Virus record (IMG/VR): IMGVR_UViG_3300020460_000013
Span: 37,322-101,321 of that record
Length of the DNA stretch: 64,000 nt
Strand: one strand, 5' to 3'
DNA from: a virus
Taxonomy: Duplodnaviria > Caudoviricetes
Part shown: piece after piece, positions 4,870 to 35,849 of the stretch
Numbering within the stretch: the first letter of the stretch is position 1
Layout of the letters: each line of letters begins with the position of its first letter
Made by a program: the position numbers and the translations under genes
The notes under the pieces: model-generated
Told to the model about the DNA's origin: nothing
The model's database searches: none
Seen by the model: the letters and a program-made list of their open reading frames with translations, nothing else

Positions 4870-4898
4870 ATTATACACTGATTCGTTTTGTATGTCAA
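4870..4898 (-). promoter_or_regulatory. sigma70 early promoter with GANTC motif in the spacer
   Basis: TTGACA-17-TATAAT; CGAATCA at 4879-4885. Confidence 0.85.
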
Positions 4899-4906
4899 GT
4901 AAATAA

Positions 4907-5203
4907 TTAAAATCTTGTAAAAAAACAATCATGTCCTAGATCATTATCTTCTAGGATTATATCTCGTACTCTTTCTCTATCTAAGGAGTCACCACCACCC
5001 CAAGTAATATCGTCACGCAGATCAGCTATATACTTGTGTGTTGCATCTACAACCATATCTTTAGTCAATCCCTCAATAGGATAAACACCATCAACATGAT
5101 TGTAAAAAGACCAAACATAACTAACAAACATTTGTGTTTCGTCTGAAACTATATTGAATTTACGATATTCAGTTTCAGTAAATTTTTCATGTACTAAGTT
5201 CAT
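4907..5203 (-). CDS. Hypothetical protein
   Basis: ORF coupled to the upstream gene; GGGDSLDRERVRD motif. Confidence 0.7.
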   Translation of the reverse strand: MNLVHEKFTETEYRKFNIVSDETQMFVSYVWSFYNHVDGVYPIEGLTKDMVVDATHKYIADLRDDITWGGGDSLDRERVRDIILEDNDLGHDCFFTRF

Positions 5204-5628
5204 TACGCAGCCTCCATAACTTCATAAGATTTATCCCACTTACCAACTTCGATATGCATATAGTATGCAGTATCAAAATAATCTGTCATGGCATCTGAAT
5301 TATCATACCATGCTTTCCCACCATTTAAAGCAGGAGCAACTTTCATAATTCTATAAACTTTATCTAAGATTTTTGCGTTTTCTATTCCATAGAAATCTGT
5401 TGTATAGAAATGATTGATCTGATGATGTTCACCATCATTTAAAGAACCAACTTTCATTTCGCCAGTATATTTATCTCTGTATTCCCAATCTTTAAAAGAA
5501 GGGCCTTTCATAAATGAAACAGTAACACTGTAAATACTATCTCGTCTTACAGAAAATTTATACTGTGGAAATTCTTTCTTTAAAGTATTTCGGATATGTT
5601 TAACATCATTAGTTGAAATATATGCCAT
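5203..5628 (-). CDS. LPD29-like polyvalent-protein domain protein
   Basis: IR..LKKEFP.YKFSVR and DNSDAMTDYFD motifs. Confidence 0.65.
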   Translation of the reverse strand: MAYISTNDVKHIRNTLKKEFPQYKFSVRRDSIYSVTVSFMKGPSFKDWEYRDKYTGEMKVGSLNDGEHHQINHFYTTDFYGIENAKILDKVYRIMKVAPALNGGKAWYDNSDAMTDYFDTAYYMHIEVGKWDKSYEVMEAA

Positions 5629-5654
5629 TCGTTTCTCTCTCTTTCTCTTGTTTA

Positions 5655-5689
5655 CGAATCACTATACCATGTTCTGAGAACAAAGTCAA
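5655..5689 (-). promoter_or_regulatory. sigma70 early promoter with TGATTCG abutting the -10
   Basis: TTGACT-17-TATAGT-GATTCG. Confidence 0.85.
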
Positions 5690-5697
5690 GTCTTTTT

Positions 5698-5889
5698 TTA
5701 AGAAAAATCAACGAAAGGTTGAACACCAACAATTTTTGCAATTTTATTTAAGGTTTTCTGACCAGAGCTGGACATTCTTTCAAACTCCCAACCTAAGTCA
5801 TTGACTAAATCTGGTAAAGTTTTTTTAATTTTAGCAAGTTCACCTAATCTAGATTGAATTTCATTTAATTGCTTTTCAGTAAGTTTCAT
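5698..5889 (-). CDS. Hypothetical early protein
   Basis: Has its own promoter and an AG-rich RBS. Confidence 0.7.
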   Translation of the reverse strand: MKLTEKQLNEIQSRLGELAKIKKTLPDLVNDLGWEFERMSSSGQKTLNKIAKIVGVQPFVDFS

Positions 5890-5915
5890 AATATATACTC
5901 TCTTTCTTTTGTTTA

Positions 5916-5950
5916 CGAATCACTATACCATGTTCTGATAACAATGTCAA
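5916..5950 (-). promoter_or_regulatory. sigma70 early promoter with TGATTCG abutting the -10
   Basis: TTGACA-17-TATAGT-GATTCG; near duplicate of the promoter at 5655-5689. Confidence 0.85.
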
Positions 5951-6159
5951 GAAACTTTTACGGCTATATAAATGCAAAGTGCAAGGATTATTAATTTACC
6001 ATAGTCGAGATCAAATCGTGTACCCTCACCATACTGATTATCCCACATCTCTTTCATAGTTTTTCTTTTCTTCTTAATCTTATAATGTATGGTGGGTTCT
6101 TCTATCTGTCCATCATCTAACAGATCTTGGGCTGGTGTTCCAAATGGTTTACTACTCAT
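5947..6159 (-). CDS. Hypothetical membrane-anchored protein
   Basis: C-terminal hydrophobic segment; AAGGAG RBS. Confidence 0.65.
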   Translation of the reverse strand: MSSKPFGTPAQDLLDDGQIEEPTIHYKIKKKRKTMKEMWDNQYGEGTRFDLDYGKLIILALCIYIAVKVS

Positions 6160-6173
6160 ACTCTATCTCCTTA

Positions 6174-6515
6174 TTACTGAGTCATCAAACGATAATAATC
6201 ATGTAAAGGATCTTTTTCCTCAACATGATCTTCTCCTAATTCATATGCATTGATAGAATACTTCTCTTTGTATTCATCATAATACTGCATTGCGTTATTA
6301 ATCACTTCCCATTTATCATAACTATCTTTACAATGATTCTCTTGCCACCAGAAGAATCCATTAATCAAAAAACAAAAATTCCATCTATTTTGTAATTGTC
6401 GAAAGTACTGTCTTGCGCTCACAGTTTGATTATTCTTTCCACCAAAGAAAGTATTTACAAAGATACTCCAACTTATACAAACTCTTCCGAACCATTTTCC
6501 GATTTTTTGAATCAT
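6174..6515 (-). CDS. Hypothetical protein
   Basis: N..FGG...QTVSAR...FWWQENHC motif typical of small phage proteins. Confidence 0.7.
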   Translation of the reverse strand: MIQKIGKWFGRVCISWSIFVNTFFGGKNNQTVSARQYFRQLQNRWNFCFLINGFFWWQENHCKDSYDKWEVINNAMQYYDEYKEKYSINAYELGEDHVEEKDPLHDYYRLMTQ

Positions 6516-6524
6516 TTTTTTATC

Positions 6525-7028
6525 CTACATTCCACCACTTATATATCCATTCTGACCTCGACACATACTTGCCATCAGAGCAAAGAGAGGATCATTTTTA
6601 TTTGCTGGATCGTATCCCATATGATCTATATACTCGTCTTGCAGACGAAACGCATCAGCTTCTAATTGTTGTTTACATTCCACCACTTCATAATATCCAT
6701 TGTGATACTGCAAGTAATGTACTAACTCATGTATCAGTACCACTTCGTAAAAATTTTTCTCAATCATACCACCTGTCGGTTTTGTTGCAATTGCAATAAT
6801 GTCAGTACGATTATCATAATAGCCTGCAATATCGCATGGGTATGTCAATTTAAACTCTTTACAGATTGATTCGTTTGACATAACTTGTACTGTGGGTAGA
6901 GGTGTGCCTGTGTAAGAGTATTCACTATTGTTTTCTATGAACCCTATCAGTTCATACATCTGTGATTCTTTTGCGATTATCTCTTGAACTACAAGAACAA
7001 AAATTAAAAGTAACAAAGGTTTTCTCAT
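6525..7028 (-). CDS. Exported HEXXH zinc metallopeptidase-like protein
   Basis: Signal peptide; LIHELVHYLQ; downstream E.DA. Confidence 0.7.
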   Translation of the reverse strand: MRKPLLLLIFVLVVQEIIAKESQMYELIGFIENNSEYSYTGTPLPTVQVMSNESICKEFKLTYPCDIAGYYDNRTDIIAIATKPTGGMIEKNFYEVVLIHELVHYLQYHNGYYEVVECKQQLEADAFRLQDEYIDHMGYDPANKNDPLFALMASMCRGQNGYISGGM

Positions 7029-7441
7029 GGCATTGTGAATAAGGCTCTAATACCCAACTTATCTGCTGGTGTTGTGTGTATTGGTGTTCGTGCAAAGACA
7101 ACCCATTTATAAGACCATGACATTAAATCATTTGGATAATGTTCATCAATAAAATCTATAAAGGATTTACCTGTCGTAAATACATCATCTACTAACATTG
7201 GCTGATGTGTCGGATCACCTGTCGCATATTTTCTTAATGCATCTGCAAGAGGAATGCCACCTCTAGGAATACCCTCTACAGATCTAAATGGTTCTGTCTG
7301 ATATGTCATAATGATAGAAGCAATACTATTCCAATCTTTCATATCAAACGCATCACACTCTAATTTAAATTTAAGAGTATTACCAGAGTGAGAAGTAAAC
7401 TCACCATATTCAAATAATCTTGCTTCAGTTCTGTGTGTCAT
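7025..7441 (-). CDS. Orotate phosphoribosyltransferase-like PRTase
   Basis: GEFTSHSG, GIPRGG and the LVDDVFTTG PRPP-binding loop. Confidence 0.75.
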   Translation of the reverse strand: MTHRTEARLFEYGEFTSHSGNTLKFKLECDAFDMKDWNSIASIIMTYQTEPFRSVEGIPRGGIPLADALRKYATGDPTHQPMLVDDVFTTGKSFIDFIDEHYPNDLMSWSYKWVVFARTPIHTTPADKLGIRALFTMP

Positions 7442-7634
7442 ATTGACTCTCTGTTCCTTGAACTGTCCATGGCATATCTTCTGTATCTTCTTTAGGTAGA
7501 TAGACTAAAACAGAAGCTTTGCATTGTTCATTCGGACATGAGAGATTAGTGACCATAGAATATTCTAACTCATCATCATTTGCGTCATGATCGCCGCCCC
7601 ATATCAACTCTGTATTACAATGCCAACAATTCAT
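7425..7634 (-). CDS. Small zinc-finger-like protein
   Basis: MNCWHC...ELIWGGDHD...LSCP..C. Confidence 0.75.
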   Translation of the reverse strand: MNCWHCNTELIWGGDHDANDDELEYSMVTNLSCPNEQCKASVLVYLPKEDTEDMPWTVQGTESQYDTQN

Positions 7635-7668
7635 ATATTTTTCTGTATCTTTATTGCATTTATAGATT

Positions 7669-7743
7669 ATGATTGGCTGCCCAGTTTTAGGGGGGCGGCC
7701 GAATCATTTCTATTATTATATCATACTATATAGTGCGTGTCAA
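7669..7743 (-). promoter_or_regulatory. Perfect sigma70 promoter followed by a GC-rich hairpin that encodes the mini-ORF MIRPPP*
   Basis: TTGACA(7743-7738)-17-TATAAT(7720-7715); ATG ATT CGG CCG CCC CCC TAA at 7707-7687. Confidence 0.7.
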
Positions 7744-7751
7744 CTCATTTG

Positions 7752-8033
7752 TCAACCCATTGCGTTATAATATCCCTCACAAGAACAATGTGTCACACCA
7801 CCTGATTCGTTTTGCACAACCAACTCTGCACCTGTAAACCAGATACACGCTTCATTATAAGACGCATACATCTCTGTAGGAATGTAACAAGTAAAGGGCA
7901 TCTTCCAATCTTTATCATCACATATCTCATCAAACAACTTCTTGTTCTCAGCTTGTTGTAGAAACAAGTCAGACTTCAATGCCTCATCAAACTGTAATAG
8001 TTCTCCTATAGATGTTTCTTTTGTCATTAACAA
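7752..8033 (-). CDS. Hypothetical protein
   Basis: ORF in an early operon. Confidence 0.7.
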   Translation of the reverse strand: MLMTKETSIGELLQFDEALKSDLFLQQAENKKLFDEICDDKDWKMPFTCYIPTEMYASYNEACIWFTGAELVVQNESGGVTHCSCEGYYNAMG

Positions 8034-8269
8034 CTCCTCAATCTCTTTCCTAAATCATTATCATTGTAGTCACCCTTACTCGCCCAATTGCGAAATGCAG
8101 AACATTCTGTGATGTTCTGCATACACTGGAGAGAAAGAGGACACGAATCACAAGGACAATTTTTCTTATTCTCTGGCCCTGTGTGCATCTCTGTAGTATT
8201 ATAGACAGACTCCGAATCACTCGAATCTCTACCCATATAACATTCTGAATCCCAATCGGATATAATCAT
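8027..8269 (-). CDS. Small Cys-rich hypothetical protein
   Basis: CPCDSCP...C......CSAF; promoter upstream. Confidence 0.65.
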   Translation of the reverse strand: MIISDWDSECYMGRDSSDSESVYNTTEMHTGPENKKNCPCDSCPLSLQCMQNITECSAFRNWASKGDYNDNDLGKRLRSC

Positions 8270-8303
8270 AATCGAATCACCTTATATCATTCCTAGCATA
8301 GTC

Positions 8304-8332
8304 AGTATATCAACTTGTCAAGAGTTTGTCAA
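8304..8332 (-). promoter_or_regulatory. sigma70 promoter
   Basis: TTGACA-17-TATACT; TGATTCG at 8279-8273 just before the ATG. Confidence 0.7.
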
Positions 8333-8415
8333 GAGATATTTGATAATAATATGGCCGCATACACACCCACAATTATTAACCACATGACTATTGCTACTAT
8401 TAAAAATCGAATCAT
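8329..8415 (-). CDS. 28-aa single-pass membrane peptide, probably leaderless (not in ORF track)
   Basis: MIRFLIVAIVMWLIIVGVYAAILLSNIS*; ATG is 7 nt past a -10 box. Confidence 0.45.
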   Translation of the reverse strand: MIRFLIVAIVMWLIIVGVYAAILLSNIS

Positions 8416-8421
8416 ATTCAT

Positions 8422-8492
8422 ACTTTACACCGATTCGTTCTCTCTGTCAAGTGAAAAAACCCCTTGACAAAAAAAAATTTTCGTGATAGAAT
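8422..8492. promoter_or_regulatory. Back-to-back divergent sigma70 promoters
   Basis: Minus strand: TTGACA(8450-8445)-17-TAAAGT with CGAATCG in the spacer. Plus strand: TTGACA(8464-8469)-17-TAGAAT. Confidence 0.7.
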
Positions 8493-8562
8493 ACACCCTT
8501 TAATGCACAAAAGAAAACACCTAACTACCTTTTTTTATACCTTTTTTAATATTGTACGCAAA

Positions 8563-8587
8563 TCCCATTTTATCCCACGATTTCCCA
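8563..8587. repeat. Three TCCCA (TGGGA) direct repeats with 10-bp period
   Basis: TCCCA at 8563, 8573 and 8583. Confidence 0.7.
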
Positions 8588-8592
8588 TGAAT

Positions 8593-9186
8593 CTACGCAA
8601 AGTTTCTTCTCTCTGTAGGAGTGATGTTATATCCGAATATATGGCCATCACTTATTTTCATTTCTTTAACTTGATCATAACATTTTTTATGAGAAAAATA
8701 CTTGTTTTTGGTTTTATATCTTTTTATAACGTCTTTACTCACTACAATGAGTTTATTTCGTTCATAGTTCATATACACCATAAGAAAACGAGGATCATCT
8801 TCTAGAAAATGATCTTTTCTTCCTAGAAAATGAAGATGTTTATAGTATGAAGGCCAATCACCTTTCCATTGTGACCATCTTTCTACGTCTATATGAAGAA
8901 GTCTTTTATCATCATTCACAAGAGCGAGATCAATACCATACTTACCATCTGGTTTGATTTTCCATCTGCAATGAGGCCATTGTTTCATATGGAATTGTAC
9001 TGATGAGCATGAATTGACATATCGTAGAATATAGGTTTGAAGATCACGATTGTTCTTTGTATGTTCAATAAAAGTTTCGCAATCTGAATCGTCATCATAA
9101 TTGTTTTGTCGGTCTGAATAACTACCCCATTTATTTTTCATTTGTTTGGTCACTTGCATATTAATAGTTCGCCTCCCATGAGTCAC
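8593..9186 (-). CDS. Hypothetical protein, possibly a PD-(D/E)xK-fold nuclease
   Basis: YGIDL...IDVERW spacing; weak. Confidence 0.6.
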   Translation of the reverse strand: MTHGRRTINMQVTKQMKNKWGSYSDRQNNYDDDSDCETFIEHTKNNRDLQTYILRYVNSCSSVQFHMKQWPHCRWKIKPDGKYGIDLALVNDDKRLLHIDVERWSQWKGDWPSYYKHLHFLGRKDHFLEDDPRFLMVYMNYERNKLIVVSKDVIKRYKTKNKYFSHKKCYDQVKEMKISDGHIFGYNITPTERRNFA

Positions 9187-9391
9187 ATATACTTCTTAAT
9201 GTCATACTTACATATCCTTCATAACAATCATCACTCTCTGCAAAGGTAGATATTTCATCAATTTGTTCTTGATTCAACTCTTCTACTTCTTCGACTCCAT
9301 ATTGTTCTCTGATATCTTCCCATACCCAATCATATGTAAGTGATTCTATTTGATCTTGTAACTTATGCATTTTGTTCACTTTAAATGTCAT
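9161..9391 (-). CDS. Hypothetical protein
   Basis: ORF with GAGG RBS. Confidence 0.7.
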   Translation of the reverse strand: MTFKVNKMHKLQDQIESLTYDWVWEDIREQYGVEEVEELNQEQIDEISTFAESDDCYEGYVSMTLRSICDSWEANY

Positions 9392-9396
9392 ACTTA

Positions 9397-9588
9397 TTAC
9401 CTCTTCTGGTCTGTTATTACTGTCGTAAATGCACCGATAGCTGCACCCTCTTCACACTTACCAAATGCGACTTCACCTAATATACATCCAGCAGCTGTAT
9501 TTCCTAGTAGTCTTTGACCCTCTTTGGTTACATAGTTTGTACTACACGCACCTAATAATAGTCCTATTAATATACAGTATTTCATCAT
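9397..9588 (-). CDS. Small lipoprotein, glycine-zipper-like
   Basis: LLGAC lipobox. Confidence 0.65.
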   Translation of the reverse strand: MMKYCILIGLLLGACSTNYVTKEGQRLLGNTAAGCILGEVAFGKCEEGAAIGAFTTVITDQKR

Positions 9589-10190
9589 GTTATTCTCCTT
9601 TCACTATAATGATAATTTTTTGTTGCACTTGTATCGAAATCAAACCCCCAATAGTCTATGTCCTGTTTATACCAATCAGCGACTATTTGTATGGTTTGTT
9701 CGTTATTATAATAATCTTGGTAATTTCTTGTATAGTCACCTACATTTTCTATGACAATATATGGTGTATTCAGATTCAGATAAGGACTCAATTCGTCATC
9801 AATAAATTCTAATCTTAATATATCACAGCGTACTATACCACTCTCGTCACAGACATAATCATATTGTGTACTCCAGCTTCTGATGGGATCAACAACTGAA
9901 TGTATATCGACTTTCCATACATATCTGGTTTCTAGAAACTCTTCAAAAGTATTCCATTTTACTCCATGATCATTTGTATTTGAAGTAGGTATTCCCATGA
10001 CATATCTTGATACCATTCTGGCCCAAGGATTACGAATCACTGCAAAAGATTGATATATGTATCGTATATCTCTAGGAACATCTCTCCATCTATAATGACC
10101 GAATGAGAGTGCGTTTGTCATTTCTTTGTGTACTGACGTTCCACCATTCTTGGGTATGTGTATGAAGAGTCTTTTTACTTCTTTTTCCAT
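9585..10190 (-). CDS. Sulfotransferase family 2 protein
   Basis: FIHIPKNGGTS and RNPWARMVS PAPS-binding motifs. Confidence 0.85.
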   Translation of the reverse strand: MEKEVKRLFIHIPKNGGTSVHKEMTNALSFGHYRWRDVPRDIRYIYQSFAVIRNPWARMVSRYVMGIPTSNTNDHGVKWNTFEEFLETRYVWKVDIHSVVDPIRSWSTQYDYVCDESGIVRCDILRLEFIDDELSPYLNLNTPYIVIENVGDYTRNYQDYYNNEQTIQIVADWYKQDIDYWGFDFDTSATKNYHYSERRIT

Positions 10191-10411
10191 AATCTCTTCT
10201 CTAGTTCATTGTATCCACCAATGTATTCGTCATCAATGAAGATCGCTGGTACTTGTTTGATGTTGGGGTAATTGTCTTTGAACTCTATCAGATGATTGAT
10301 ATCGTCTAGGAGTTTTTCTTCGTATTCGACTCCATAATAATCTAACATAGACTTGGCTCGGACGCAGAATTGACAAGGTGGTTTGCGTCTGGAGTACATC
10401 AATATTTTCAT
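10175..10411 (-). CDS. Glutaredoxin
   Basis: CQFC; VPAIFID..YIGGY. Confidence 0.9.
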   Translation of the reverse strand: MKILMYSRRKPPCQFCVRAKSMLDYYGVEYEEKLLDDINHLIEFKDNYPNIKQVPAIFIDDEYIGGYNELEKRLWKKK

Positions 10412-10644
10412 GTATCATCCTCTATCATATAATTTTTAAGATCCATGATCTTTTCGTGTTCAATCAATTCAAGTATTGTTTCTGTGATCTCTTTTTCTTT
10501 TCGTAGGAAGAAGAGTTTTTCTTCGATAATCTTGAGCTGACTTTCGTACTTCTCAATCTCTCGTTGTTTTTGTAACTTACTTTCTATTAGATCTGTGATA
10601 AAAATAATCTTTTTACTTTTGTTATTCGTCATCATACATTGCAA
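10408..10644 (-). CDS. Hypothetical coiled-coil protein
   Basis: Coupled ORF. Confidence 0.7.
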   Translation of the reverse strand: MQCMMTNNKSKKIIFITDLIESKLQKQREIEKYESQLKIIEEKLFFLRKEKEITETILELIEHEKIMDLKNYMIEDDT

Positions 10645-10707
10645 TCCATACTAACCAAGCCAATATCCATGTTATACCCATAAAAATGATAAGATAAAAA
10701 ATTATCA

Positions 10708-10920
10708 TCATCTTATATCATACCAATGCACCCTATCATTAATATATACCACCACAGGTATCAATAAACATACCAACATACACCAATTTAGACCATCCCA
10801 AGGCACGAATAGATGATACCAAAAGTCAAAATGAAATGGGTGCATTGTTCCATAATCAGTTCCCTCGTAGTAATAATTCGTTGTCATAGTGTTTGTTCTC
10901 TCTCCATTCTTGTCCACCAT
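10708..10920 (-). CDS. Hypothetical membrane protein
   Basis: Hydrophobic C-terminal segment. Confidence 0.5.
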   Translation of the reverse strand: MVDKNGERTNTMTTNYYYEGTDYGTMHPFHFDFWYHLFVPWDGLNWCMLVCLLIPVVVYINDRVHWYDIR

Positions 10921-11215
10921 ACGGACTTATTGGTCGTTTATATAGAGGATTGAAGTCCTTGAGTTCTGGTTTTGTGTCTGTAGAAGATTGTGTTGTTGCA
11001 TGAACACAACCCATTTCGACTACGTGCATTCTAGATTTGTAGGTATTTTTTGCATACTGTAACACACCAGAATGTAGATTGACCTCGTTTCCACGATAAA
11101 ATGACTCGCATTGAGCCTGATTATCAAACGTCAAATTCCAACTGATTAAGAGTTCGGTGTCCTTTACAAACCCCTCATAACCCATGATTGCATAAAATAT
11201 AATAGCCCATTTCAT
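10856..11215 (-). CDS. Hypothetical protein
   Basis: ATGA-coupled ORF. Confidence 0.65.
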   Translation of the reverse strand: MKWAIIFYAIMGYEGFVKDTELLISWNLTFDNQAQCESFYRGNEVNLHSGVLQYAKNTYKSRMHVVEMGCVHATTQSSTDTKPELKDFNPLYKRPISPYGGQEWRENKHYDNELLLRGN

Positions 11216-11481: not shown

Positions 11482-11656
11482 AGTATTCTATTCCCCCACC
11501 ATGTTGATCATAGTCATATTTGTTCTCAATACGTGCAATCTGGTCTTTCAACACCAACTTTTCTTTCTTAATATCTCTACGTTCTTCATCTGTTAATATA
11601 TCGTTTTCTAGTCTTTCTTCCAATTTCTGATGTTCTTTTCGTAGAGCATTAAGCAT
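11462..11656 (-). CDS. DUF465/YdcH-like small coiled-coil protein
   Basis: L..EH..L...IKKEKLVLKDQI. Confidence 0.7.
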   Translation of the reverse strand: MLNALRKEHQKLEERLENDILTDEERRDIKKEKLVLKDQIARIENKYDYDQHGGGIEYFGYNGA

Positions 11657-11665
11657 ATGAATCTC

Positions 11666-12708: not shown

Positions 12709-12992
12709 TAAGCAGCCTCCAACATTGTAAATGGAACTTGATATGTTGCAGTTTCGCCAGTAATTGGTGATCTTACCATATCGACAAGTGCTCTTGTCTT
12801 GTTGATTTTGACCACAGTACCAGGCGTCTTTTTTGTTTTCTGAACAACATAGACTCTCATACCTACTTTTATGTCTGATTTTGCTTTCATAGTCTTGATA
12901 TCTCTACACATACCCATAACTTCAGTTAGTTCACTAGGTGTCATAGTGTGTAGTATTTCTGATACTTTTCTCATGTTAGTAATAGTAACCAT
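12708..12992 (-). CDS. Hypothetical protein (KOW/SH3-like C-terminus)
   Basis: IKVGMRVYV...GTVVKINKTRA. Confidence 0.7.
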   Translation of the reverse strand: MVTITNMRKVSEILHTMTPSELTEVMGMCRDIKTMKAKSDIKVGMRVYVVQKTKKTPGTVVKINKTRALVDMVRSPITGETATYQVPFTMLEAA

Positions 12993-13186
12993 TATATATT
13001 CTCCTTGTTATCAAAATCTTCAATTACTAATTCATCTTCATAATCTTGCAGACTTGATGCAACTGCGAACTCTAGACGCAATGCAACATATGGACTTGTT
13101 TTTACAAGTTCTGCAGCCATATTCTCTATTTCTATAGGACTTAAATTTTGTAGTGTCTTTACTGCAAGTTTAGTTCTTACTGACAT
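12992..13186 (-). CDS. Hypothetical early protein
   Basis: AGAGAGG RBS after a promoter. Confidence 0.7.
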   Translation of the reverse strand: MSVRTKLAVKTLQNLSPIEIENMAAELVKTSPYVALRLEFAVASSLQDYEDELVIEDFDNKENI

Positions 13187-13203: not shown

Positions 13204-13238
13204 CGAATCACTATATCATATATATTGTTTCGTGTCAA
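13204..13238 (-). promoter_or_regulatory. sigma70 early promoter with TGATTCG abutting the -10
   Basis: TTGACA-17-TATAGT-GATTCG. Confidence 0.85.
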
Positions 13239-13942: not shown

Positions 13943-13997
13943 CGAATCACCTTTCTCTCTATACTATTAATATACCTGTTTTCATAACAAATGTCAA
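13943..13997 (-). promoter_or_regulatory. sigma70 early promoter with downstream TGATTCG
   Basis: TTGACA-17-TATATT; TGATTCG at 13949-13943. Confidence 0.75.
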
Positions 13998-27232: not shown

Positions 27233-27241
27233 TATTATTTT

Positions 27242-27427
27242 GTGTTGGTGGGACTTGGGTACACCCACAACTGAAGAACCAAGATACCATTCTTGCGTAA
27301 TCTCCAGAACCTAGTTCCAATCGGTGAGATTGATGTGACACAGCGTGCTTCCACTACCATGCCTGGATACCACTCCTAACTAGTCAAGTTCATATCTCTT
27401 GGTGAGATACTCTTCCTTGCACAACAC
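27242..27427 (-). ncRNA. ~186-nt structured RNA, manA-motif-like
   Basis: Terminal GTGTTG/CAACAC stem and internal hairpins. GTGCAAGGA and GTGGGT..CC.AGTCCCAC segments recall the manA RNA from memory; not searched. Confidence 0.55.
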
Positions 27428-27458
27428 GATTTTGGCCGTCGCCAAACTATGAAACTGG

Positions 27459-28867: not shown

Positions 28868-28914
28868 AATATTTCCATTCTATAGTTAATTTTAATCAAT
28901 ATATCAAATATGAC

Positions 28915-29175
28915 TTACATTGTCAATGGTTTTACAAAACTTTTTTTCCAAACTTCTGTAGCTGGTACACGAATAAATCTTCTCTTTGTTTCGTGTTTAT
29001 TTGGATTAGGTATTGTTACCATAACTTTTTTACCTTTACGAAAAGCTTCTGCTTGATGTACTATTCTTTGACCAGACTCGATAAAGTCTTTTCTCATAGA
29101 CTTAGTTATTTGTTTAGAAACACTTCGTCTTTCACCTTTAGAGGTTTGTTTATCTCTTTTCTTTTTCTTACCCAT
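28915..29175 (-). CDS. Basic hypothetical protein
   Basis: SKGERRSV...TIPNPNK.ET...FIRV. Confidence 0.7.
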   Translation of the reverse strand: MGKKKKRDKQTSKGERRSVSKQITKSMRKDFIESGQRIVHQAEAFRKGKKVMVTIPNPNKHETKRRFIRVPATEVWKKSFVKPLTM

Positions 29176-29875
29176 TATTTTCTTGTCCTAACTTTATCTT
29201 ACTAATGAGATATTCTTTTACTAGACCAGAACGAACTATATCACCTAAATTAAATTCTACAGTTGCAAAACTTTCCATCTTAGATATGATGGACATAAAA
29301 TACTTGAGGCCTTCTTTTTCTGATTGTTTTTGTAAATCTGTCTGAAAGAAATCACCACAGAATATTATTTTACTGTCTTGTCCAACTCTTGTAGTAATAG
29401 TGTCTAGTTCGTGAAAATTTAGGTTCTGACACTCATCTACGATAATGATTGCATTGTCTAGTGTTATACCTCGTAAAAAAGATGTGGTTAGAAACATCAA
29501 ACTTTGTTGATTTTTTAATCTATCATACAATAAAGAAAATGCGTGTTCATTTGGTTGTGAGAATATAAACCTTACCATGTTCTGGTATGGTACTTGAAAC
29601 AATGCAGTTTTATCTTCTTCATCGCCTGGTAAAAAACCTATTTCTCTTGTAGGAACTGCACTACGAACTAGATAAACTGTATCATACTTAGTATCATTTC
29701 TTAGACATTCCTGTAATGCAAGATACAAAGAAATAAATGTTTTTCCTGTACCAGCTGCACCATAGAGAAACATATTCTTTCCTTTTTTGTAATGTTCAAA
29801 TACTTTCTTTTGATTATCACCAACTGGCGATACAGAAATCATATCATCAATTCTAATATCTTTTGCTTTAGCCAT
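29168..29875 (-). CDS. phoH: PhoH-family ATPase
   Basis: GAAGTGKT, GFLPG, FLRG.T and DECQN motifs. Confidence 0.95.
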   Translation of the reverse strand: MAKAKDIRIDDMISVSPVGDNQKKVFEHYKKGKNMFLYGAAGTGKTFISLYLALQECLRNDTKYDTVYLVRSAVPTREIGFLPGDEEDKTALFQVPYQNMVRFIFSQPNEHAFSLLYDRLKNQQSLMFLTTSFLRGITLDNAIIIVDECQNLNFHELDTITTRVGQDSKIIFCGDFFQTDLQKQSEKEGLKYFMSIISKMESFATVEFNLGDIVRSGLVKEYLISKIKLGQENNG

Positions 29876-30186
29876 TAACTAACTTTCCATTTACTTCTGT
29901 GTTTATCAATCACTCGTTTTGTCTGTGATTGTTTTACAGTTCTTCTATTGTATCTTTCGTCTATTTCACTGCCTGGGTGATTTTCACCAATCTTCTGTAA
30001 CACTTCTTTAAACCCATCATCAGTTTTACTGTCTACTGTAGTTGCAACTGTAGATACAATTGCAAATGGTGTAGGTATTTGTGTTATGTGTGGATTTTTC
30101 TCTAGAAGTTCTTCTCTTCTTGAATTTGACAAAAAGTCATCAAACTGTTCACCAGTTTCATTATTCATAAATCTAAATGTAGGCAT
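29875..30186 (-). CDS. Conserved T4-like hypothetical protein
   Basis: MPTFRF.N.ETGE; GFKEVL.KI. Confidence 0.75.
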   Translation of the reverse strand: MPTFRFMNNETGEQFDDFLSNSRREELLEKNPHITQIPTPFAIVSTVATTVDSKTDDGFKEVLQKIGENHPGSEIDERYNRRTVKQSQTKRVIDKHRSKWKVS

Positions 30187-30416
30187 TATCTAACTACCGA
30201 ATCTCTTAAATCGTTCAACTCTTTTATTCTATTTAGGAGTCCATATTTCTCTTTATTCATTACTGCAATTTCTTTTTTCAATAACTCTACTTGTCGTCTT
30301 AACTCTGCATTTTCTTGTCTTAAAGATACCCTCTCGTCAAACTTCATACTCTTTTCCTTTCTTAACTTCCAAAGAATCCATTCATAATATCTTTCTGGTT
30401 CTACATCATCATCCAT
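30186..30416 (-). CDS. Hypothetical coiled-coil protein
   Basis: Coupled ORF. Confidence 0.6.
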   Translation of the reverse strand: MDDDVEPERYYEWILWKLRKEKSMKFDERVSLRQENAELRRQVELLKKEIAVMNKEKYGLLNRIKELNDLRDSVVR

Positions 30417-30940
30417 GTTGGTGTTTCTCTATTTGTCCACTTTGCAAAATCTTTCTTATACTTTATATAGTAGTTTCGATATGCAAGTATACTGTCATCA
30501 CCTTTTACATCATCAGGCATGGCCTGTGGTATTTCTGTTAAACCTTTTTCTTCAATATTTACTGGTGGTGTTCTAAGAAGTTCTCGTAACAAAGAGTCTG
30601 TATAGTGAACTTTACCATACCTATGTGTATATTCATCACATAGATTTTCAAATAAACTGTGTAACCAAATATAGTTTGTAATACTTTCTCTTGTCCATAT
30701 TGCACTTGGATGATTAATATGTGAAGCTTTGTAGAGTATATTTTCTATATTTGTATTTGGGTGTTTCCATCTGCGTATTCTACGACCATTCTTAGTCTTA
30801 TCCTCATACTCTACACCATCAAGTATTCTATGTGCAGTAGACATAAGTTGTGCATACTCTATAATCATTTTCACAACGTGTTTGTCACAATGCATTTGTG
30901 CAGACTTTTTAGTATCTTCATGTAGATTGAATATGTTCAT
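30401..30940 (-). CDS. Pyrimidine-dimer DNA glycosylase-like protein
   Basis: MNIF.L, HCDKHVVKM..E.AQ, H.NHP and AYR.YY motifs. Confidence 0.75.
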   Translation of the reverse strand: MNIFNLHEDTKKSAQMHCDKHVVKMIIEYAQLMSTAHRILDGVEYEDKTKNGRRIRRWKHPNTNIENILYKASHINHPSAIWTRESITNYIWLHSLFENLCDEYTHRYGKVHYTDSLLRELLRTPPVNIEEKGLTEIPQAMPDDVKGDDSILAYRNYYIKYKKDFAKWTNRETPTWMMM

Positions 30941-31182
30941 TTTTTCACACAGAAGTTTCGTAAAAATTTACAATCAACTTCTCCTTTACATACTTTTTCA
31001 TGTTTTGCATTTTCCCAACAATCGCCATCTGGTAAATGCATCTGTACAAACATACCCCATGTTCCCATAGAAGTAAAGAGTAAAATAGCAGGAATTATCA
31101 ACATCATAAAAACTAGTGTAATAAATGCTGATCCAAATCCCTCATTGTCATATGGTTCATTATTCATTTTCTGTTCTCCCAT
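30937..31182 (-). CDS. Hypothetical membrane protein
   Basis: TM segment and Cys-rich tail. Confidence 0.6.
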   Translation of the reverse strand: MGEQKMNNEPYDNEGFGSAFITLVFMMLIIPAILLFTSMGTWGMFVQMHLPDGDCWENAKHEKVCKGEVDCKFLRNFCVKK

Positions 31183-31601
31183 CTATAAAATATATGTTTA
31201 TCAATTTTTGCAATTCTTCTATACTTTTTATTCTTAGCCCAATATGGAAAAACAGAGGTCGCATGATAATGTGTAGCATTACCTACAAGTTCTTCTGTTC
31301 TTCCTGCTATTACTGTCTTTGCAACCATCAAAGAAGTTTTCCATGATTTACTTTTTGTATTCGGTGTATCGTCTGCACCATCACAGTACCAACTAAAATG
31401 ACACATATTCTTTTTGGGTAAACCATTACTATCTAAAACTGCTTGTTTAACAACTCCACAGATTGTATCTGGAAATCGTTTATCGTTTACACGATTAATA
31501 ACGACTTGTGCAACAGCAATCTGTCCAACAATGGGTTCTGAACGTGCTTCATGGTACACGTTCATGGCCATACACATTAATGCAGTTTTAAGTAACATCA
31601 C
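31164..31601 (-). CDS. SleB-like cell wall hydrolase (Hydrolase_2)
   Basis: YHEAR.E, VINRV, FSWYCDG and ATHYHA motifs. Confidence 0.9.
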   Translation of the reverse strand: MMLLKTALMCMAMNVYHEARSEPIVGQIAVAQVVINRVNDKRFPDTICGVVKQAVLDSNGLPKKNMCHFSWYCDGADDTPNTKSKSWKTSLMVAKTVIAGRTEELVGNATHYHATSVFPYWAKNKKYRRIAKIDKHIFYRWENRK

Positions 31602-31607
31602 AAGTAT

Positions 31608-31802
31608 TTATTGTTTATCAACCCAAAATTCATTCCAAAACATATCTAGTTCTTTACTCAACATTACTGATGTTGTAGTAATATCATCAAAATCAAACAT
31701 TTTTAACCAGAACTCTTTAAAGGATTCACAATCATTAATAACTTCGTGAGCATGATCCCAAAACTTTTCTTCAAAATCTAACATTAAACTTGACATTCCC
31801 AT
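31608..31802 (-). CDS. Hypothetical early protein
   Basis: Has its own promoter and an AGGAGAGAG RBS. Confidence 0.7.
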   Translation of the reverse strand: MGMSSLMLDFEEKFWDHAHEVINDCESFKEFWLKMFDFDDITTTSVMLSKELDMFWNEFWVDKQ

Positions 31803-31822
31803 AACTCTCTCCTTTTTAATTA

Positions 31823-31857
31823 CGAATCATTATATCATTTTTCGATATAATTGTCAA
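31823..31857 (-). promoter_or_regulatory. sigma70 early promoter with TGATTCG abutting the -10
   Basis: TTGACA-17-TATAAT-GATTCG. Confidence 0.85.
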
Positions 31858-32230
31858 ACATTTTTCTTTCTAACTTAAAAGCCTCTATTTCATAAGGTCT
31901 ATCTTCATATGCAACCTTACTACTTTTATCTACGGCGAATATATCACCACCAAATTCTTTCTTGATATGTTGTTTAATATGAACAAACTCATGAAAGATT
32001 GTTTTAATCAAATCATCTACTGATAATTGTCTATTAATTCTAATATAATATGACCTATCATCTAAATCATAAACATCACCACATTGACCAAACTTTAAAG
32101 GTTCAATATGAATCTCATCAATCTTATGTCTAGGTAATAGATAAGACTTTGCGAACCAGAGAGCATCCTCAATGGTTCGTTTTAGTTTTTTATTGGTTCT
32201 TCTTTTAAATTCTATGTACATATTAATCAA
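31835..32230 (-). CDS. HEXXH metallopeptidase-like protein
   Basis: HEFVHIKQ...PYEIEA. Confidence 0.75.
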   Translation of the reverse strand: MINMYIEFKRRTNKKLKRTIEDALWFAKSYLLPRHKIDEIHIEPLKFGQCGDVYDLDDRSYYIRINRQLSVDDLIKTIFHEFVHIKQHIKKEFGGDIFAVDKSSKVAYEDRPYEIEAFKLERKMFDNYIEK

Positions 32231-32408
32231 AAGTTATTTGAGCTGCATAGTCAATATTATCAAAGATTTTATCTAACTCTGCAATCTTTTCCTTGCACTT
32301 CATTATTGCAAATCCGTTGCCAGGGGTTTTCTTTTTCTTTCGTTCAAGGGAATTTAACATATCTTTAAAGAATGTATATTCTTTTTGTAATTGTGTCAGT
32401 TGATTCAT
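32223..32408 (-). CDS. Hypothetical early protein (start revised to MNQL)
   Basis: AGAGAGAGA RBS after a promoter. Confidence 0.7.
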   Translation of the reverse strand: MNQLTQLQKEYTFFKDMLNSLERKKKKTPGNGFAIMKCKEKIAELDKIFDNIDYAAQITFD

Positions 32409-32438
32409 AATAATCTCTCTCTTGTTAACTATACCTAT

Positions 32439-32467
32439 ATTATAAACTGATTCGTTTTTTGTGTCAA
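32439..32467 (-). promoter_or_regulatory. sigma70 early promoter with GANTC motif in the spacer
   Basis: TTGACA-17-TATAAT; CGAATCA at 32448-32454. Confidence 0.85.
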
Positions 32468-32469
32468 GT

Positions 32470-32649
32470 AAAAAAAGAGGGAACAAAAGTTCCCTCTTGA
32501 AGCCTCGTTAAATGTCACCAAGTTTCGGCCACCCACTCTTGGTGCAGTAACTTCTGTAAGAGTATTGAGTCCTTGAGTTTACCAGACTTGTAACTCACTC
32601 TGTTACTTTCGTCATGTCATTGGTTTTAATCTCCCTCTTTATTAACTAT
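32470..32649 (-). ncRNA. ~180-nt structured transcript with RBS and AUG-ACA-UGA minigene
   Basis: Promoter TTGACA(32684)-17-TATACT with CGAATCA; nested stems; terminator AAGAGGGAAC-TTTT-GTTCCCTCTTTTTTT; no substantial ORF. Confidence 0.65.
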
Positions 32650-32701
32650 ACTTACAGTATATACTGATTCGTTTAGTTTGTCAACACTTTTTGTTATCAA
32701 A

Positions 32702-32791
32702 ACAAAAAACCCTCAGAAGAGGGTTTTCGCTTGTCGTGGGTTATTAGATTTTAGAGAGTGAGAGAGAGAGGACTAACAATCCCACGACACA
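32702..32791 (-). ncRNA. ~90-nt sRNA with a CU-rich (anti-SD-like) loop
   Basis: TTGACA(32826)-17-TAGTCT; 16-bp stem; loop TCCTCTCTCTCTCACTCTCTAAAAT; terminator AAAACCCTC-TTCT-GAGGGTTTTTT. Confidence 0.75.
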
Positions 32792-32832
32792 TGGATTAGA
32801 CTATCATATCATAATATAAATGTCAATAGTTT

Positions 32833-33288
32833 TTAATCCATTAACTCAAAATGTGGCCCATCAATAAATGGCCTTCTACCTTGTGAACGTCTTAAATCAA
32901 TATATGCGTTCATAGCATCTTCCATTGTACCATCCCAATCTCGCATATCATTAATGTGCCATGCAGCTCCCCAACGCACTTGTACACCTTCTTGAATAGC
33001 TGCTTCTTTCATTGCATCTGCAAGATCATCATAAAGGTTCAATTCCCATGATCCCCTTGAACCAACATAGGCCATGAGGTCAACTGCTTTACCCTCTAAA
33101 TGTTTACTCTTCATTGTTTGACTTGCGCCTTTCGCTACAAGCTCTTTTTGTTGTGCTTCGGTTCTTAAACCTTGAATCACGCCAAAGTCAGTTTTTGTCA
33201 ATCCTATGGCAGTTTTGACAACTCTTTGCATACGCTCATCAACACCCTCTAGTTTATCTAGTGATCTTTGTGATAATTTAAATGCCAT
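32833..33288 (-). CDS. Endolysin, M15 L-Ala-D-Glu peptidase
   Basis: GLRT..QQ, SKHL.G.AVD and DGPHFEL motifs. Confidence 0.9.
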   Translation of the reverse strand: MAFKLSQRSLDKLEGVDERMQRVVKTAIGLTKTDFGVIQGLRTEAQQKELVAKGASQTMKSKHLEGKAVDLMAYVGSRGSWELNLYDDLADAMKEAAIQEGVQVRWGAAWHINDMRDWDGTMEDAMNAYIDLRRSQGRRPFIDGPHFELMD

Positions 33289-33290
33289 TT

Positions 33291-33743
33291 TTAACTCCTA
33301 CTAAAATTATCGTTCCAATTAAACGCTTCTTTGACAACAGCTGCAGATAATCCTTTATACACTTGATGTAATCTTTTATCTTTTGTGTTAATTACCAACT
33401 CTGCTTCTGATTTATGTAATCCTTCAAGTAATTGTATAAACATATCTTCTCGTCTAAATTGTGGTAATGGATCGTTACCACCTTTTACATAATTATATAA
33501 TTTTCTTGCTTCTTTTGCAAGAACTGTATGTTCTGTTCCTTCTTCTGATTCATTTGCTTTGTATGGAACATCACCTTTTGGAAGTTTCCATTCAATTTTC
33601 GGATCAAAAGAACCTTTTAGTATCATTCTCAATGGTTCACTATCATGTTCTTTGAGAATTGCAACCTTTTTATCTTTTGTTTTTGCATTATTTACTTTCT
33701 TTAAAACTTCAGAAAGTAGTGGTGTATATGTTTTTACGGCCAT
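33291..33743 (-). CDS. Conserved T4-like hypothetical protein
   Basis: LP.GDVPY; RE.MFIQLLEGLH..EA; typical neighbour of RNase H. Confidence 0.75.
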   Translation of the reverse strand: MAVKTYTPLLSEVLKKVNNAKTKDKKVAILKEHDSEPLRMILKGSFDPKIEWKLPKGDVPYKANESEEGTEHTVLAKEARKLYNYVKGGNDPLPQFRREDMFIQLLEGLHKSEAELVINTKDKRLHQVYKGLSAAVVKEAFNWNDNFSRS

Positions 33744-33744
33744 A

Positions 33745-34611
33745 TTAAAAATCTCCAATATCGTTCATAAGATTTCTCAATCTTTTTTGTATAAAATAAT
33801 TTAGTAGATTTGATCTTTCACCTTTTGGTGGTTTGCGATATTCAATCATTATTTCTCTTTTCACATCTTTTGGAATACATTCTAAATCAATTAAAGTTTT
33901 ATTTCTTTGATAGTTTCTTAATTGTTCTGCATTACAAAAATCTTCTGGTTCTTGTTTGGACATAAGAATTGAATCTTTTCTTTTCTTACTAAAAGGTTTT
34001 TGTCTTAATCCATCAACAAAAGTATTATCTGGTGATAAGATATTTGGAATACTATCGCTTCTATCTCCTACTAATATATGTTCTTTTATATATAGGTAGG
34101 GATCAATACCATTGATAAACTTCTTGTTTACAGGGCTGTATTGTGTAACAAAGTTATACTTTTGTAGTTGTATAAAATCTTTGTCACTAGATAATATTAG
34201 TACTTTCTCATATTCATTTGGTGTTTGATTGATATGCATACAAATAGTTGCAATACAATCATCTGCTTCTGCACCATCAACTTCTATTACTTTATATGGA
34301 AAGTTTTCTCTAATCTCATCACGAATAGTATTTAATGTTTCAAATATTAAATTCCAATCCAGACCAGAGTTGGCTCTGTCTTTCTTTCGATTAGATTTAT
34401 AGTTTGGAAAATAATCTCTTCTCCAATATCTTTTGTTATCATAACATAATACTAGTTCTCCAAATTCTTCAAAGAACTTAGCTCTATACATTCTTAAAGA
34501 ATTGAGAACCATGTGTCTAACAAGATTCTCATCTACATCATTTTGTCTTTTAGAACCAACTTGCATCATAAGATTACTGATGGTTACTTGATTCATATCA
34601 ACTAATATCAT
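33745..34611 (-). CDS. rnh: T4-type RNase H (5'-3' exonuclease)
   Basis: LVD.NQ, EADD, SSDKDF and GDRSD.IPN motifs. Confidence 0.9.
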   Translation of the reverse strand: MILVDMNQVTISNLMMQVGSKRQNDVDENLVRHMVLNSLRMYRAKFFEEFGELVLCYDNKRYWRRDYFPNYKSNRKKDRANSGLDWNLIFETLNTIRDEIRENFPYKVIEVDGAEADDCIATICMHINQTPNEYEKVLILSSDKDFIQLQKYNFVTQYSPVNKKFINGIDPYLYIKEHILVGDRSDSIPNILSPDNTFVDGLRQKPFSKKRKDSILMSKQEPEDFCNAEQLRNYQRNKTLIDLECIPKDVKREIMIEYRKPPKGERSNLLNYFIQKRLRNLMNDIGDF

Positions 34612-34620
34612 AATACATTC

Positions 34621-34854
34621 CTAGTGTAGTGTTTCTTTCTCTGCTCCTAGTTCAGTTGAGTGATCTACTATCATAGCCATCAAACTTATAAACTCTTTTT
34701 CAGACAACACTTCTTTATATATGCGTGTTGCTGTTGCTTGCATTATGCCTGCAATTTCTAATAGACTAATATTCTTTTTTACAACTAGTTCTTCGACTAA
34801 TTTTATAATATCTGCGTGAGCTTCTTCAAATCTTTCTACACGACCCTTTTCCAT
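34621..34854 (-). CDS. Hypothetical protein
   Basis: ORF in an operon. Confidence 0.65.
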   Translation of the reverse strand: MEKGRVERFEEAHADIIKLVEELVVKKNISLLEIAGIMQATATRIYKEVLSEKEFISLMAMIVDHSTELGAEKETLH

Positions 34855-35225
34855 CTTACTCTCTTTTCTTGATATTCACCATAAAAATCATCACACCAAT
34901 CACCATGTTTTAGATAGTATTCACAGTTACGAATATAACCCTCAATACTAGCAGCTCTTGAGATTGCACCTTTGATATTATCTCTTACAGCTTTTCTTTC
35001 GACTGTAAGTAATTCTTTTTGAGTCTTAATCCACTTACGAATATTCTTTAGACAAAGAATATGATCGTCTGGTAAGTTAATAACTTCCTTTGCAATATTT
35101 TTATATTGAGGTGGATTTTCTCTCAACCTCTTCTCCCTTGCCTTTGCAAGTCTTTCAGTTGCAGCTATTCTTTGTTCAACCGACATTGGTTTTCTTGGTT
35201 TCTTAAATTTTTTCACAGTATTCAT
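34836..35225 (-). CDS. Conserved hypothetical phage protein
   Basis: ERLAKARE; YL..GDW.D.FYGE. Confidence 0.75.
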   Translation of the reverse strand: MNTVKKFKKPRKPMSVEQRIAATERLAKAREKRLRENPPQYKNIAKEVINLPDDHILCLKNIRKWIKTQKELLTVERKAVRDNIKGAISRAASIEGYIRNCEYYLKHGDWCDDFYGEYQEKRVRWKRVV

Positions 35226-35236
35226 TATAACCTCTC

Positions 35237-35482
35237 TTATAATCTCTCTTCTAATTCTTTTTGTAATTTACGTTTGTATCTGCGTATTGCAGCCGCTTTC
35301 TCTTTCCTACGTTTCTCACCTCTGGATTGAAAGTAAGTTTTCTCACGCAGTTCTTGAATAATACCCTCTTTGACAAGACGCTTTCTAAGAACACGCAATG
35401 CACCATTTACATCATTGTTGCGAACAGATACAGATAAACCTTTTGGTTCATCTGTTTTATTTGATTTCTTTTTATATTTCAT
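35237..35482 (-). CDS. rpsU: Ribosomal protein bS21
   Basis: VRNNDVNGALRVLRK...EG...ELRE..YF....EKRR..KAAA.RR; TATAAATA 5 nt before the ATG. Confidence 0.9.
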   Translation of the reverse strand: MKYKKKSNKTDEPKGLSVSVRNNDVNGALRVLRKRLVKEGIIQELREKTYFQSRGEKRRKEKAAAIRRYKRKLQKELEERL

Positions 35483-35490
35483 ACTAGTAT

Positions 35491-35790
35491 TTATAATAAG
35501 TAATTGGGAGTTAACCCTTTCTCATATTCTTCATGTATCTCAATAATCTTGTATGCTTCAATACAAGCAGCTTCTAAAAGGTCATGAGCACCATCTGATG
35601 TTTTAAACCCATACTCATCTGCAAAGTCCATTGAAGAAGAAGTTCTGAAGTACTCTCCAAAACCATAGTTCGCAAGACAATTTGCAAGTTCATTAACATG
35701 ATTGGAAGAACAAACAATCTCGTTGCTTCCATCATCTTCATAGTTATGCAATTCTAATTTACCTTCGTTACAACTCAAATATGAAATCAT
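35491..35790 (-). CDS. Hypothetical early protein
   Basis: SSSMDFADEYGF; has its own promoter. Confidence 0.7.
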   Translation of the reverse strand: MISYLSCNEGKLELHNYEDDGSNEIVCSSNHVNELANCLANYGFGEYFRTSSSMDFADEYGFKTSDGAHDLLEAACIEAYKIIEIHEEYEKGLTPNYLL

Positions 35791-35814
35791 TAATAATACC
35801 TTTCTCTCTGTTTA

Positions 35815-35849
35815 CGAATCATAATACCATTTTCTGCATATGGAGTCAA
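35815..35849 (-). promoter_or_regulatory. sigma70 early promoter with TGATTCG abutting the -10
   Basis: TTGACT-17-TATTAT-GATTCG. Confidence 0.8.

Follow-up and report, generated by a model that had tools for sequence, protein, structure and literature searches.

The DNA analysed here, a stretch of 64,000 nucleotides (nt) referred to throughout as the window, comprises positions 37,322 to 101,321 of the IMG/VR record IMGVR_UViG_3300020460_000013 and represents the final 64 kb of a 101,321 bp contig that is estimated to be 63% complete. Its source is an uncultured marine T4-like phage. The window has a G+C content of 33% and encodes gp32, gp5, a tail-tube cap, a ribonucleotide reductase, a primase, PstS and Bmp, together with an alpha-type two-piece transfer-messenger RNA (tmRNA) and a manA RNA motif. 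Nearly all genes in the window are carried by the minus strand, from which the early promoters in the window are also read, and it is to this sense strand that the box orientations of an earlier, sequence-only reading of the same DNA refer. Most of the early promoters contain, at fixed positions, the seven-base word TGATTCG (or its complement CGAATCA), a sequence that matches the best-established binding word of GcrA, an RNA polymerase cofactor of the Alphaproteobacteria, and this box is the subject of the present analysis.

The closest cultured relative of the phage is Melnitz, a phage of Methylophilales (OM43), with which the window shares its gene order and 76% identity in gp32, compared with 60–61% for the Pelagibacter phages Mosig and HTVC008M. 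A closer, uncultured relative, the 145 kb contig G001 (95% complete), is collinear with the source contig at approximately 86% nucleotide identity.

All 13 boxes located by the sequence-only reading hold the word given for them (13/13 when checked against the window letters). The window contains 18 copies of YGATTCG, compared with 4.9 ± 2.4 in shuffled sequences, none of 100 of which reached 18; 17 of the 18 copies read TGATTCG and one reads CGATTCG. Every copy of the whole 101,321 bp contig (18/18) falls within window positions 4879–35821, a 31 kb early region, while the other 70 kb contain none. The 795 positions of 15 intergenic promoters of consensus sigma70 type hold 12 boxes, with 0.05 expected (Poisson P ~3e-25), and CGAATCA/TGATTCG is the most enriched 7-mer in these positions, which harbour 11 of the 17 contig copies. 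The occurrence of boxes at promoters is far beyond chance, and a comparison of promoters with the rest of the contig, which the sequence-only reading had proposed, showed TGATTCG to be strongly concentrated in the former. Plain GANTC, in contrast, is not in excess in the window (164 copies versus 202 ± 14 in shuffles; observed/expected ratio of 1.0 under a Markov model), and a general surplus of this site was rejected because neither expectation is exceeded. Eight GANTC sites are clustered within 8144–8437, compared with about one per 390 bp elsewhere; in a cysteine-rich open reading frame (ORF) of 80 amino acids at 8027–8269 (minus strand), the codon pair GAT-TCG (Asp-Ser) occurs three times, twice within a full TGATTCG word (8144 and 8213).

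The boxes occur in three arrangements. In class A, defined as TTGACA-N7-CGAATC(A/G)-N3-(-10) and comprising four promoters (-35 elements starting at 4898, 8450, 32467 and 32684), the box lies in the spacer, whereas in class B, comprising five (5689, 5950, 13238, 31857 and 35849), the final T of the -10 hexamer opens TGATTCG, which is mostly followed by TAAACA. Four further copies are found 7 to 24 nt past a -10 (promoters 7743, 8332, 8450 and 13997). Start sites were placed from the -10 hexamer, so that distances to +1 are approximate; the box centres lie at about -19 in class A (spanning -22 to -16), at about -4 in class B and at about +5, +6, +17 and +22 in the downstream copies. Between paralogous promoters the flanks and spacers vary while the box is constant. 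An interpretation of class A as extended -10 promoters was rejected, since positions -15/-14 read GT and not TG.

Among the class A promoters, all on the minus strand, that at 4870–4898 (-35 at 4893–4898; CGAATCA at 4879–4885, centred at about -19; -10 TATAAT at 4870–4875) drives a small ORF starting near 4836, and its orthologue in G001 retains the box within differing flanks. The promoter at 8408–8450 combines a spacer box with a downstream one (-35 at 8445–8450; CGAATCG at 8431–8437; -10 TAAAGT at 8422–8427; TGATTCG at 8408–8414, about +5); it drives a hydrophobic ORF of ~30 amino acids, and both boxes are retained in G001. The remaining two are found at 32439–32467 (-35 at 32462–32467; CGAATCA at 32448–32454; -10 TATAAT at 32439–32444) and at 32656–32684 (-35 at 32679–32684; CGAATCA at 32665–32671; -10 TATACT at 32656–32661).

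Each class B promoter, likewise on the minus strand, drives an assigned ORF. That at 5655–5689 (-35 TTGACT at 5684–5689; -10 TATAGT at 5661–5666; TGATTCG at 5655–5661, followed by GTAAACA) precedes ORF 5203–5628; those at 5916–5950 (-10 TATAGT at 5922–5927; box at 5916–5922) and 13204–13238 (-10 TATAGT at 13210–13215; box at 13204–13210) precede ORFs 5698–5889 and 12992–13186, respectively; and those at 31823–31857 (-10 TATAAT at 31829–31834; box at 31823–31829) and 35815–35849 (-35 TTGACT; -10 TATTAT at 35821–35826; box at 35815–35821) precede ORFs 31608–31802 and 35491–35790. The three other minus-strand promoters with a downstream box are located at 7700–7743 (-10 TATAAT at 7715–7720; TGATTCG at 7700–7706, about +6, followed by a GC-rich leader), at 8273–8332, where the box (8273–8279, about +22) overlaps the Shine–Dalgarno-like sequence AAGGTGAT immediately before the ATG at 8269, and at 13943–13997, where the box (13943–13949, about +17) lies within AAGGTGATTCG immediately before the ATG and the spacer carries TTGTT..AACA of the Melnitz type. 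This spacer element, TTGTTnTnAnAACA(T/G)G, with the inverted repeat TGTT..AACA, is the second one conserved in these promoters; it fills the -35/-10 spacer at window positions 5667–5683, 5928–5944 and 13975–13991 and in most Melnitz early promoters, and might serve a phage factor as its operator.

Strong promoters of the same strand that lack the box offer a contrast. One, at 28897–28926 (TATATT followed by GATTAA), lies upstream of a gene for a PD-(D/E)XK exonuclease, and another, at 32798–32826, belongs to a small RNA (sRNA) unit. The gp32, exonuclease and sRNA promoters are devoid of the box, as the sequence-only reading had stated, and so is the primase promoter. No YGATTCG was found near the tmRNA gene when all window copies were mapped, the tmRNA promoter itself not having been located; the manA RNA motif (64 bits; 27238–27446, minus strand) lies immediately 3' of this gene.

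The sequence GTA(A/T)A recurs 5–6 nt past the -10 in all promoter classes, as well as in the unrelated contig G005, and is likely to mark the start-site region. Its constant distance from the -10 in all classes, the equally conserved GTAAACA that follows the class B boxes and the coincidence of two downstream boxes with AAGGTGATTCG right before the ATG would suit a word that is simply part of the promoter or leader, whether as discriminator, start-site or Shine–Dalgarno-linked sequence, and that is read by RNA polymerase (RNAP) or the ribosome with no extra factor. The same 7-mer, however, occurs reversed in the spacer, which is neither transcribed nor contacted base-specifically by sigma, and Melnitz promoters have the same leader without the box; we therefore consider this explanation quite improbable.

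The boxes are exceptionally well preserved. In orthologous promoters of related contigs, one of 215 box positions has changed (0.5%), compared with 132 of 2325 other promoter positions (5.7%), a figure that is somewhat biased in that several of the contigs compared had been found through the box itself; in the same promoters the -35 hexamer has changed at one of 204 positions, so that the boxes are as invariant as the -35. Taken by itself, G001 retains 12 of the 13 boxed sites; the remaining locus (the 31857 promoter) has no orthologue there. As judged from these sequence comparisons, the boxes are under purifying selection. It could be argued that the word is a functionless passenger of promoter duplication, in keeping with the further sequence that promoters of the same class share, but its invariance amid diverged spacers and flanks, its presence in independent lineages and its absence elsewhere in the contig make this the least credible of the explanations entertained here, with very little chance of being correct.

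GANTC is the CcrM site of the Alphaproteobacteria, and GcrA is a monomeric cofactor that rides on region 2 of sigma70. The phage word, which is also methylatable by CcrM, proved to be identical, as the sequence-only reading had recognized, to the best GcrA consensus, TGATTCG (YGAKTCK/G). That consensus was derived with MEME from chromatin-immunoprecipitation sites in Caulobacter and reads more broadly YGAKTCK; the sites form a narrow cluster at -20, with others from +2 to +30 and almost none around -10 (Haakonsen et al., PMC4647560). The upstream places have been refined to -20 ± 1 and -30 ± 2, and in the crystal structure all seven bases of the box contact the monomeric DNA-binding domain of GcrA (Wu et al., PMC9976885). 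On its nontemplate strand, the PcsM scaffold used for electron cryo-microscopy has TTGACA, followed after six bases by CGAATC and after five more by TATAAT, and the PmipZ scaffold carries AGAGTCG and TGAGTCG on the nontemplate strand past the start site (PMC9976885).

Class A has the box of the PcsM scaffold on the strand that carries it there, placed one base nearer to the -10, and the copies past the -10 all lie on the nontemplate strand as YGATTCG, which is the PmipZ orientation. The strand rule of the GcrA scaffolds, for which only two reference promoters are available for comparison, is obeyed by 13 of the 13 window boxes and is the arrangement to be expected of a monomer anchored to region 2 of sigma. 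With start sites placed from the -10, the four class A and four downstream boxes fit the known GcrA places, while the five class B boxes do not. Altogether, the phage promoters resemble Caulobacter crescentus PcsM and PmipZ (PMC4647560, PMC5887438, PMC9976885) in the 7-mer, the upstream register of -20 ± 1, the strand, the sigma70-type core, the placing of downstream boxes on the nontemplate strand and the presence, as a rule, of one box per promoter; they differ in their consensus -35 and -10 elements and in the five boxes centred at about -4.

The distribution of the box among other phages bears on a role of GcrA. The Melnitz early promoters are homologous to those of the window, sharing the -35, the 17 nt spacer, the -10 and the ATATGTATA..GAGAGG leader, but they carry TTTGTTnTnAnAACATG in the spacer and none has the box (PMC9004378); the 14 YGATTCG words of Melnitz are dispersed, one of them falling in the early region. 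Since these homologous promoters are boxless and the Melnitz host class is without GcrA, their lack of boxes is counted as support for a role of GcrA. A scan of IMG/VR recovered close relatives with the same boxed promoters, as well as clearly different T4-like contigs (36–46% G+C) with several class A promoters each, in which the box invariably reads CGAATCR. One of the latter, G005, which is only 40% complete, has 13 promoters by a relaxed pattern in which TTG, GANTC and TAnnnT are the sole requirements, and all of them read (C/T)CGAATC(G/A) at the same place. The nearest isolates of the unrelated box-bearing contigs, at 38–51% protein identity, are Sinorhizobium phiM12-like phages, Ruegeria phages and Caulobacter Cr30. 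The box is not a common feature of marine T4-like phages, as five T4-like cyanophages had no class A promoter.

Searches for a phage-encoded reader of the box were largely negative. No match to the GcrA family (PF07750) was obtained in the source contig, in G001 or in the box-bearing contigs G002–G005, and relaxed GcrA hidden Markov models (HMMs), built from four alphaproteobacterial sequences (two from SAR11, one from SAR116 and one from Thalassobaculaceae), gave no match better than E = 0.7 in the source contig or in G001. A phage-encoded GcrA, as found in phiCbK-like phages, was rejected because both the family and the HMM searches were empty, and a host factor is consequently needed if GcrA is the reader. 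Neither was any match to AsiA (PF09010) or MotA (PF09114) found in the source contig or G001, in a search that was run without a positive control and is thus weak. The promoters described here are similar to the T4 middle promoters in that an extra box, read by a sigma70-bound factor, would set the promoter class. They differ from them in that T4 encodes this factor itself, uses it for middle genes and has its box at -30 in place of the -35.

G001 also encodes a 514-residue DNA methylase of family PF01555 (L226:1342-2886; G001:62255-63799), beyond the end of the contig to which the window belongs, of which only the catalytic motifs match CcrM and DpnA, the large middle part being unrelated. 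An insert of ~270 residues separates the catalytic and S-adenosylmethionine-binding motifs, and the gene adjoins a DUF932 gene; Melnitz instead has a C5 (HhaI-like) methylase elsewhere. A link between the methylase and the boxes was rejected because its homologues are widespread in viral contigs without class A promoters.

A DNA-binding protein encoded by the phage or delivered with the virion could nevertheless read TGATTCG, most simply as a repressor that shuts the early promoters when middle and late expression starts. Several features agree with such a factor: the boxes lie within the RNAP footprint (spacer and discriminator), all of the box-bearing contigs found are T4-like and have many genes in common, the lineage's other spacer element, TTGTT..AACA, shared with Melnitz, looks like an operator, and isolates from GcrA-bearing hosts lack the box. 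A small ORF of 86 residues at 28915–29175 (minus strand; phrog_23239, of unassigned function), with no known domain, is common to G001 and G005 and missing from Melnitz. No other ORF of G001 has a homologue in that unrelated box contig while lacking one in Melnitz. On the other hand, this match is weak and concerns an incomplete contig (G005, 40%), no candidate has a recognisable DNA-binding domain, and an asymmetric, monomer-type 7-mer used in two orientations would be unusual for a phage repressor. The word, the -20 register and the strand rule would, moreover, all have to equal those of GcrA by coincidence. We regard a phage factor as unlikely, although it is the most serious competitor.

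The interpretation that best accommodates these observations is that the TGATTCG words are GcrA boxes that would capture the host GcrA–RNAP holoenzyme on early promoters, the phage probably borrowing the GcrA of its host. It is favoured because of the word itself, the -20 register, the strand rule, the selection acting on the boxes, their absence from Melnitz and the lack of a phage gcrA. We give it about an even chance of being correct, confidence being held at this level by the question of the host, by the place of the class B boxes and by the lack of such promoters in SAR11 and in cultured alphaproteobacterial phages. Directly observed are the word, its fixed positions, the strand rule and the way in which the box is conserved and spread among phages, whereas we infer an alphaproteobacterial host, methylated sites and binding and activation by GcrA. 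The corresponding proposal of the sequence-only reading, which made no use of the strand rule, is partly supported: by the identity of the word, the place and strand of the class A boxes, the selection and the boxless Melnitz promoters, but not by the place of class B or by the tmRNA, which it took to indicate an alphaproteobacterial host, as Melnitz, which infects a gammaproteobacterium (OM43), also has an alpha-type two-piece tmRNA (PMC9004378).

A considerable number of observations weigh against a role of GcrA. At the level of the promoters, five of the 13 boxes (class B) directly adjoin the -10, a place at which hardly any GcrA sites occur in Caulobacter; two downstream boxes overlap the Shine–Dalgarno-like GGTGAT and were possibly placed for that reason, so that those associated with AAGGTGATTCG may owe something to the Shine–Dalgarno sequence; and promoters with a consensus -35 and -10 may need no activator. 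Among phages, the nearest cultured relative, Melnitz, infects a host class without GcrA, HTVC008M (147 kb) has no YGATTCG and a GANTC observed/expected ratio of 0.19, and Mosig, also a SAR11 phage, has 21 YGATTCG, none of them in promoters. No class A promoter was found in phiM12, Cr30, DSS3P8, RHph_I1_18 or CcrSC, which are T4-like or large isolates from hosts with GcrA and CcrM. The large adhesin-like proteins of the phage have no close isolate match, in OM43 or SAR11 phages or elsewhere. Among bacteria, SAR11 GcrA has a lysine in place of the base-contacting R33, SAR11 genomes contain 11–47 YGATTCG words versus about 95–134 in composition controls (a 3–10-fold depletion), and the pattern TTG-N11-CGAATCR-N3-TAnnnT is absent from 51 SAR11 genomes. 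Its half-pattern CGAATCR-N3-TAnnnT is not enriched in SAR11, in SAR116, in ten other alphaproteobacterial genomes or in 121 Rhodobacteraceae genomes.

The place of the class B boxes also raises the possibility that GANTC matters without GcrA, with N6-methyladenine (m6A) in or near the melting region altering promoter opening or being recognized by another host reader. The methylatable adenines of class B lie at about -5 and -3, in the transcription bubble, a region poor in GcrA sites, and methylation shifts GcrA binding to duplex DNA only two-fold but transcription strongly. The conserved word, however, is the full 7-mer with GcrA-specific flanks, restricted to GAATC/GATTC preceded by C or T and followed by G, and plain GANTC is not enriched; this explanation thus appears improbable.

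As to the identity of the host, Pelagibacterales have a CcrM homologue (Gonzalez et al., PMC3973325), and full-length GcrA was found in 49 of 51 of their genomes. The SAR11 sequences (L307, L310 and L311) read FTKNAV where those of Caulobacter, SAR116 and Thalassobaculaceae read V[ST]RNA with the arginine (R33), which suggests that the DNA word of SAR11 GcrA may differ from that of Caulobacter. The YGATTCG sites remaining in SAR11 look intragenic. SAR116 genomes are similarly depleted in the word (113–149 copies versus about 480 in the control, 3–4-fold); the Pelagibacterales genomes showing depletion are G037, G048, G054, G012, G020 and G034, while Mosig, Melnitz and the phage studied here are not depleted. 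SAR11, otherwise the obvious candidate, is unsupported as the host, given that no such promoters occur in the 51 genomes, that the word is depleted and that the HTVC008M and Mosig promoters are boxless. Two Thalassobaculaceae genomes with a GcrA gene, in contrast, show an enrichment of the half-pattern (11:0 and 8:1 versus the control); it sits there upstream of start codons and the opposite orientation is not enriched, from which it follows that the register is natural in at least some GcrA-bearing bacteria. The lack of enrichment of this geometry in 121 genomes says nothing either way about a Rhodobacteraceae host, and the full consensus promoter pattern, which is too strict to be informative, had no match in 40 named bacterial genomes. 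The Bmp gene did not narrow the host, as its homologues are spread across many Alphaproteobacteria at 54–64% identity; its best genome match (76%) lies on a 29.6 kb contig (NYWG01000067.1) of a Verrucomicrobiales metagenome-assembled genome (L227), which is probably a misbinned contig of a related phage.

If the boxes are read by GcrA, the early promoters would consist of near-consensus sigma70 promoters plus a preferred, CcrM-methylatable GcrA word, and the injected DNA would preferentially capture the host GcrA–RNAP holoenzyme. Open-complex formation would be accelerated at the spacer boxes (-19/-20) and at those at about +5/+6, as at PcsM and PmipZ, while the class B boxes, at about -4, would make the same contact in a variant form peculiar to the phage or act via m6A in the melting region. 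It is doubtful whether the boxes also have a timing role, exerted through the host cell cycle or, as the sequence-only reading had suggested, through the loss of methylation on progeny DNA; the methylase of the lineage cuts both ways, since it might equally maintain the methylation of progeny DNA.

Host cell-cycle regulators have been connected with phage promoters before. In phiCbK and vB_BsubS-Delta, CtrA boxes place sites of such a regulator in phage promoters (PMC9437464), which is similar to what is proposed here, although regulator and word differ. The same 2022 study of alphaproteobacterial phages sought positional clustering of GcrA sites in isolates and reported none (PMC9437464), and our literature search found no paper describing GcrA boxes in phage promoters. 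Tentatively, fixed-position GcrA boxes could be a convergent signature of lytic phages of Alphaproteobacteria with GcrA and CcrM, making the onset of infection depend on the replication state of the host or on that of methylation in the phage DNA. Within such a reading, the class B boxes would represent a mode of contact of GcrA or m6A unseen in Caulobacter, and the boxless Melnitz promoters would record, at the level of regulation, a change of host between an alphaproteobacterium and OM43.

Should a role of GcrA be borne out, an idea testable with existing Caulobacter reagents, a host epigenetic reader, bound to sigma70 and specific for m6A, would define the early promoter class of a phage. 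This would constitute a third way of marking a temporal class of genes, beside phage RNA polymerases and the appropriation of sigma, and would supply a plausible regulatory logic for marine T4-like phages without MotA and AsiA. Mechanistic studies would gain strong GcrA promoters of natural origin, some of them with the box at a new position, and a simple, sequence-only marker of host class would become available for uncultured phages.

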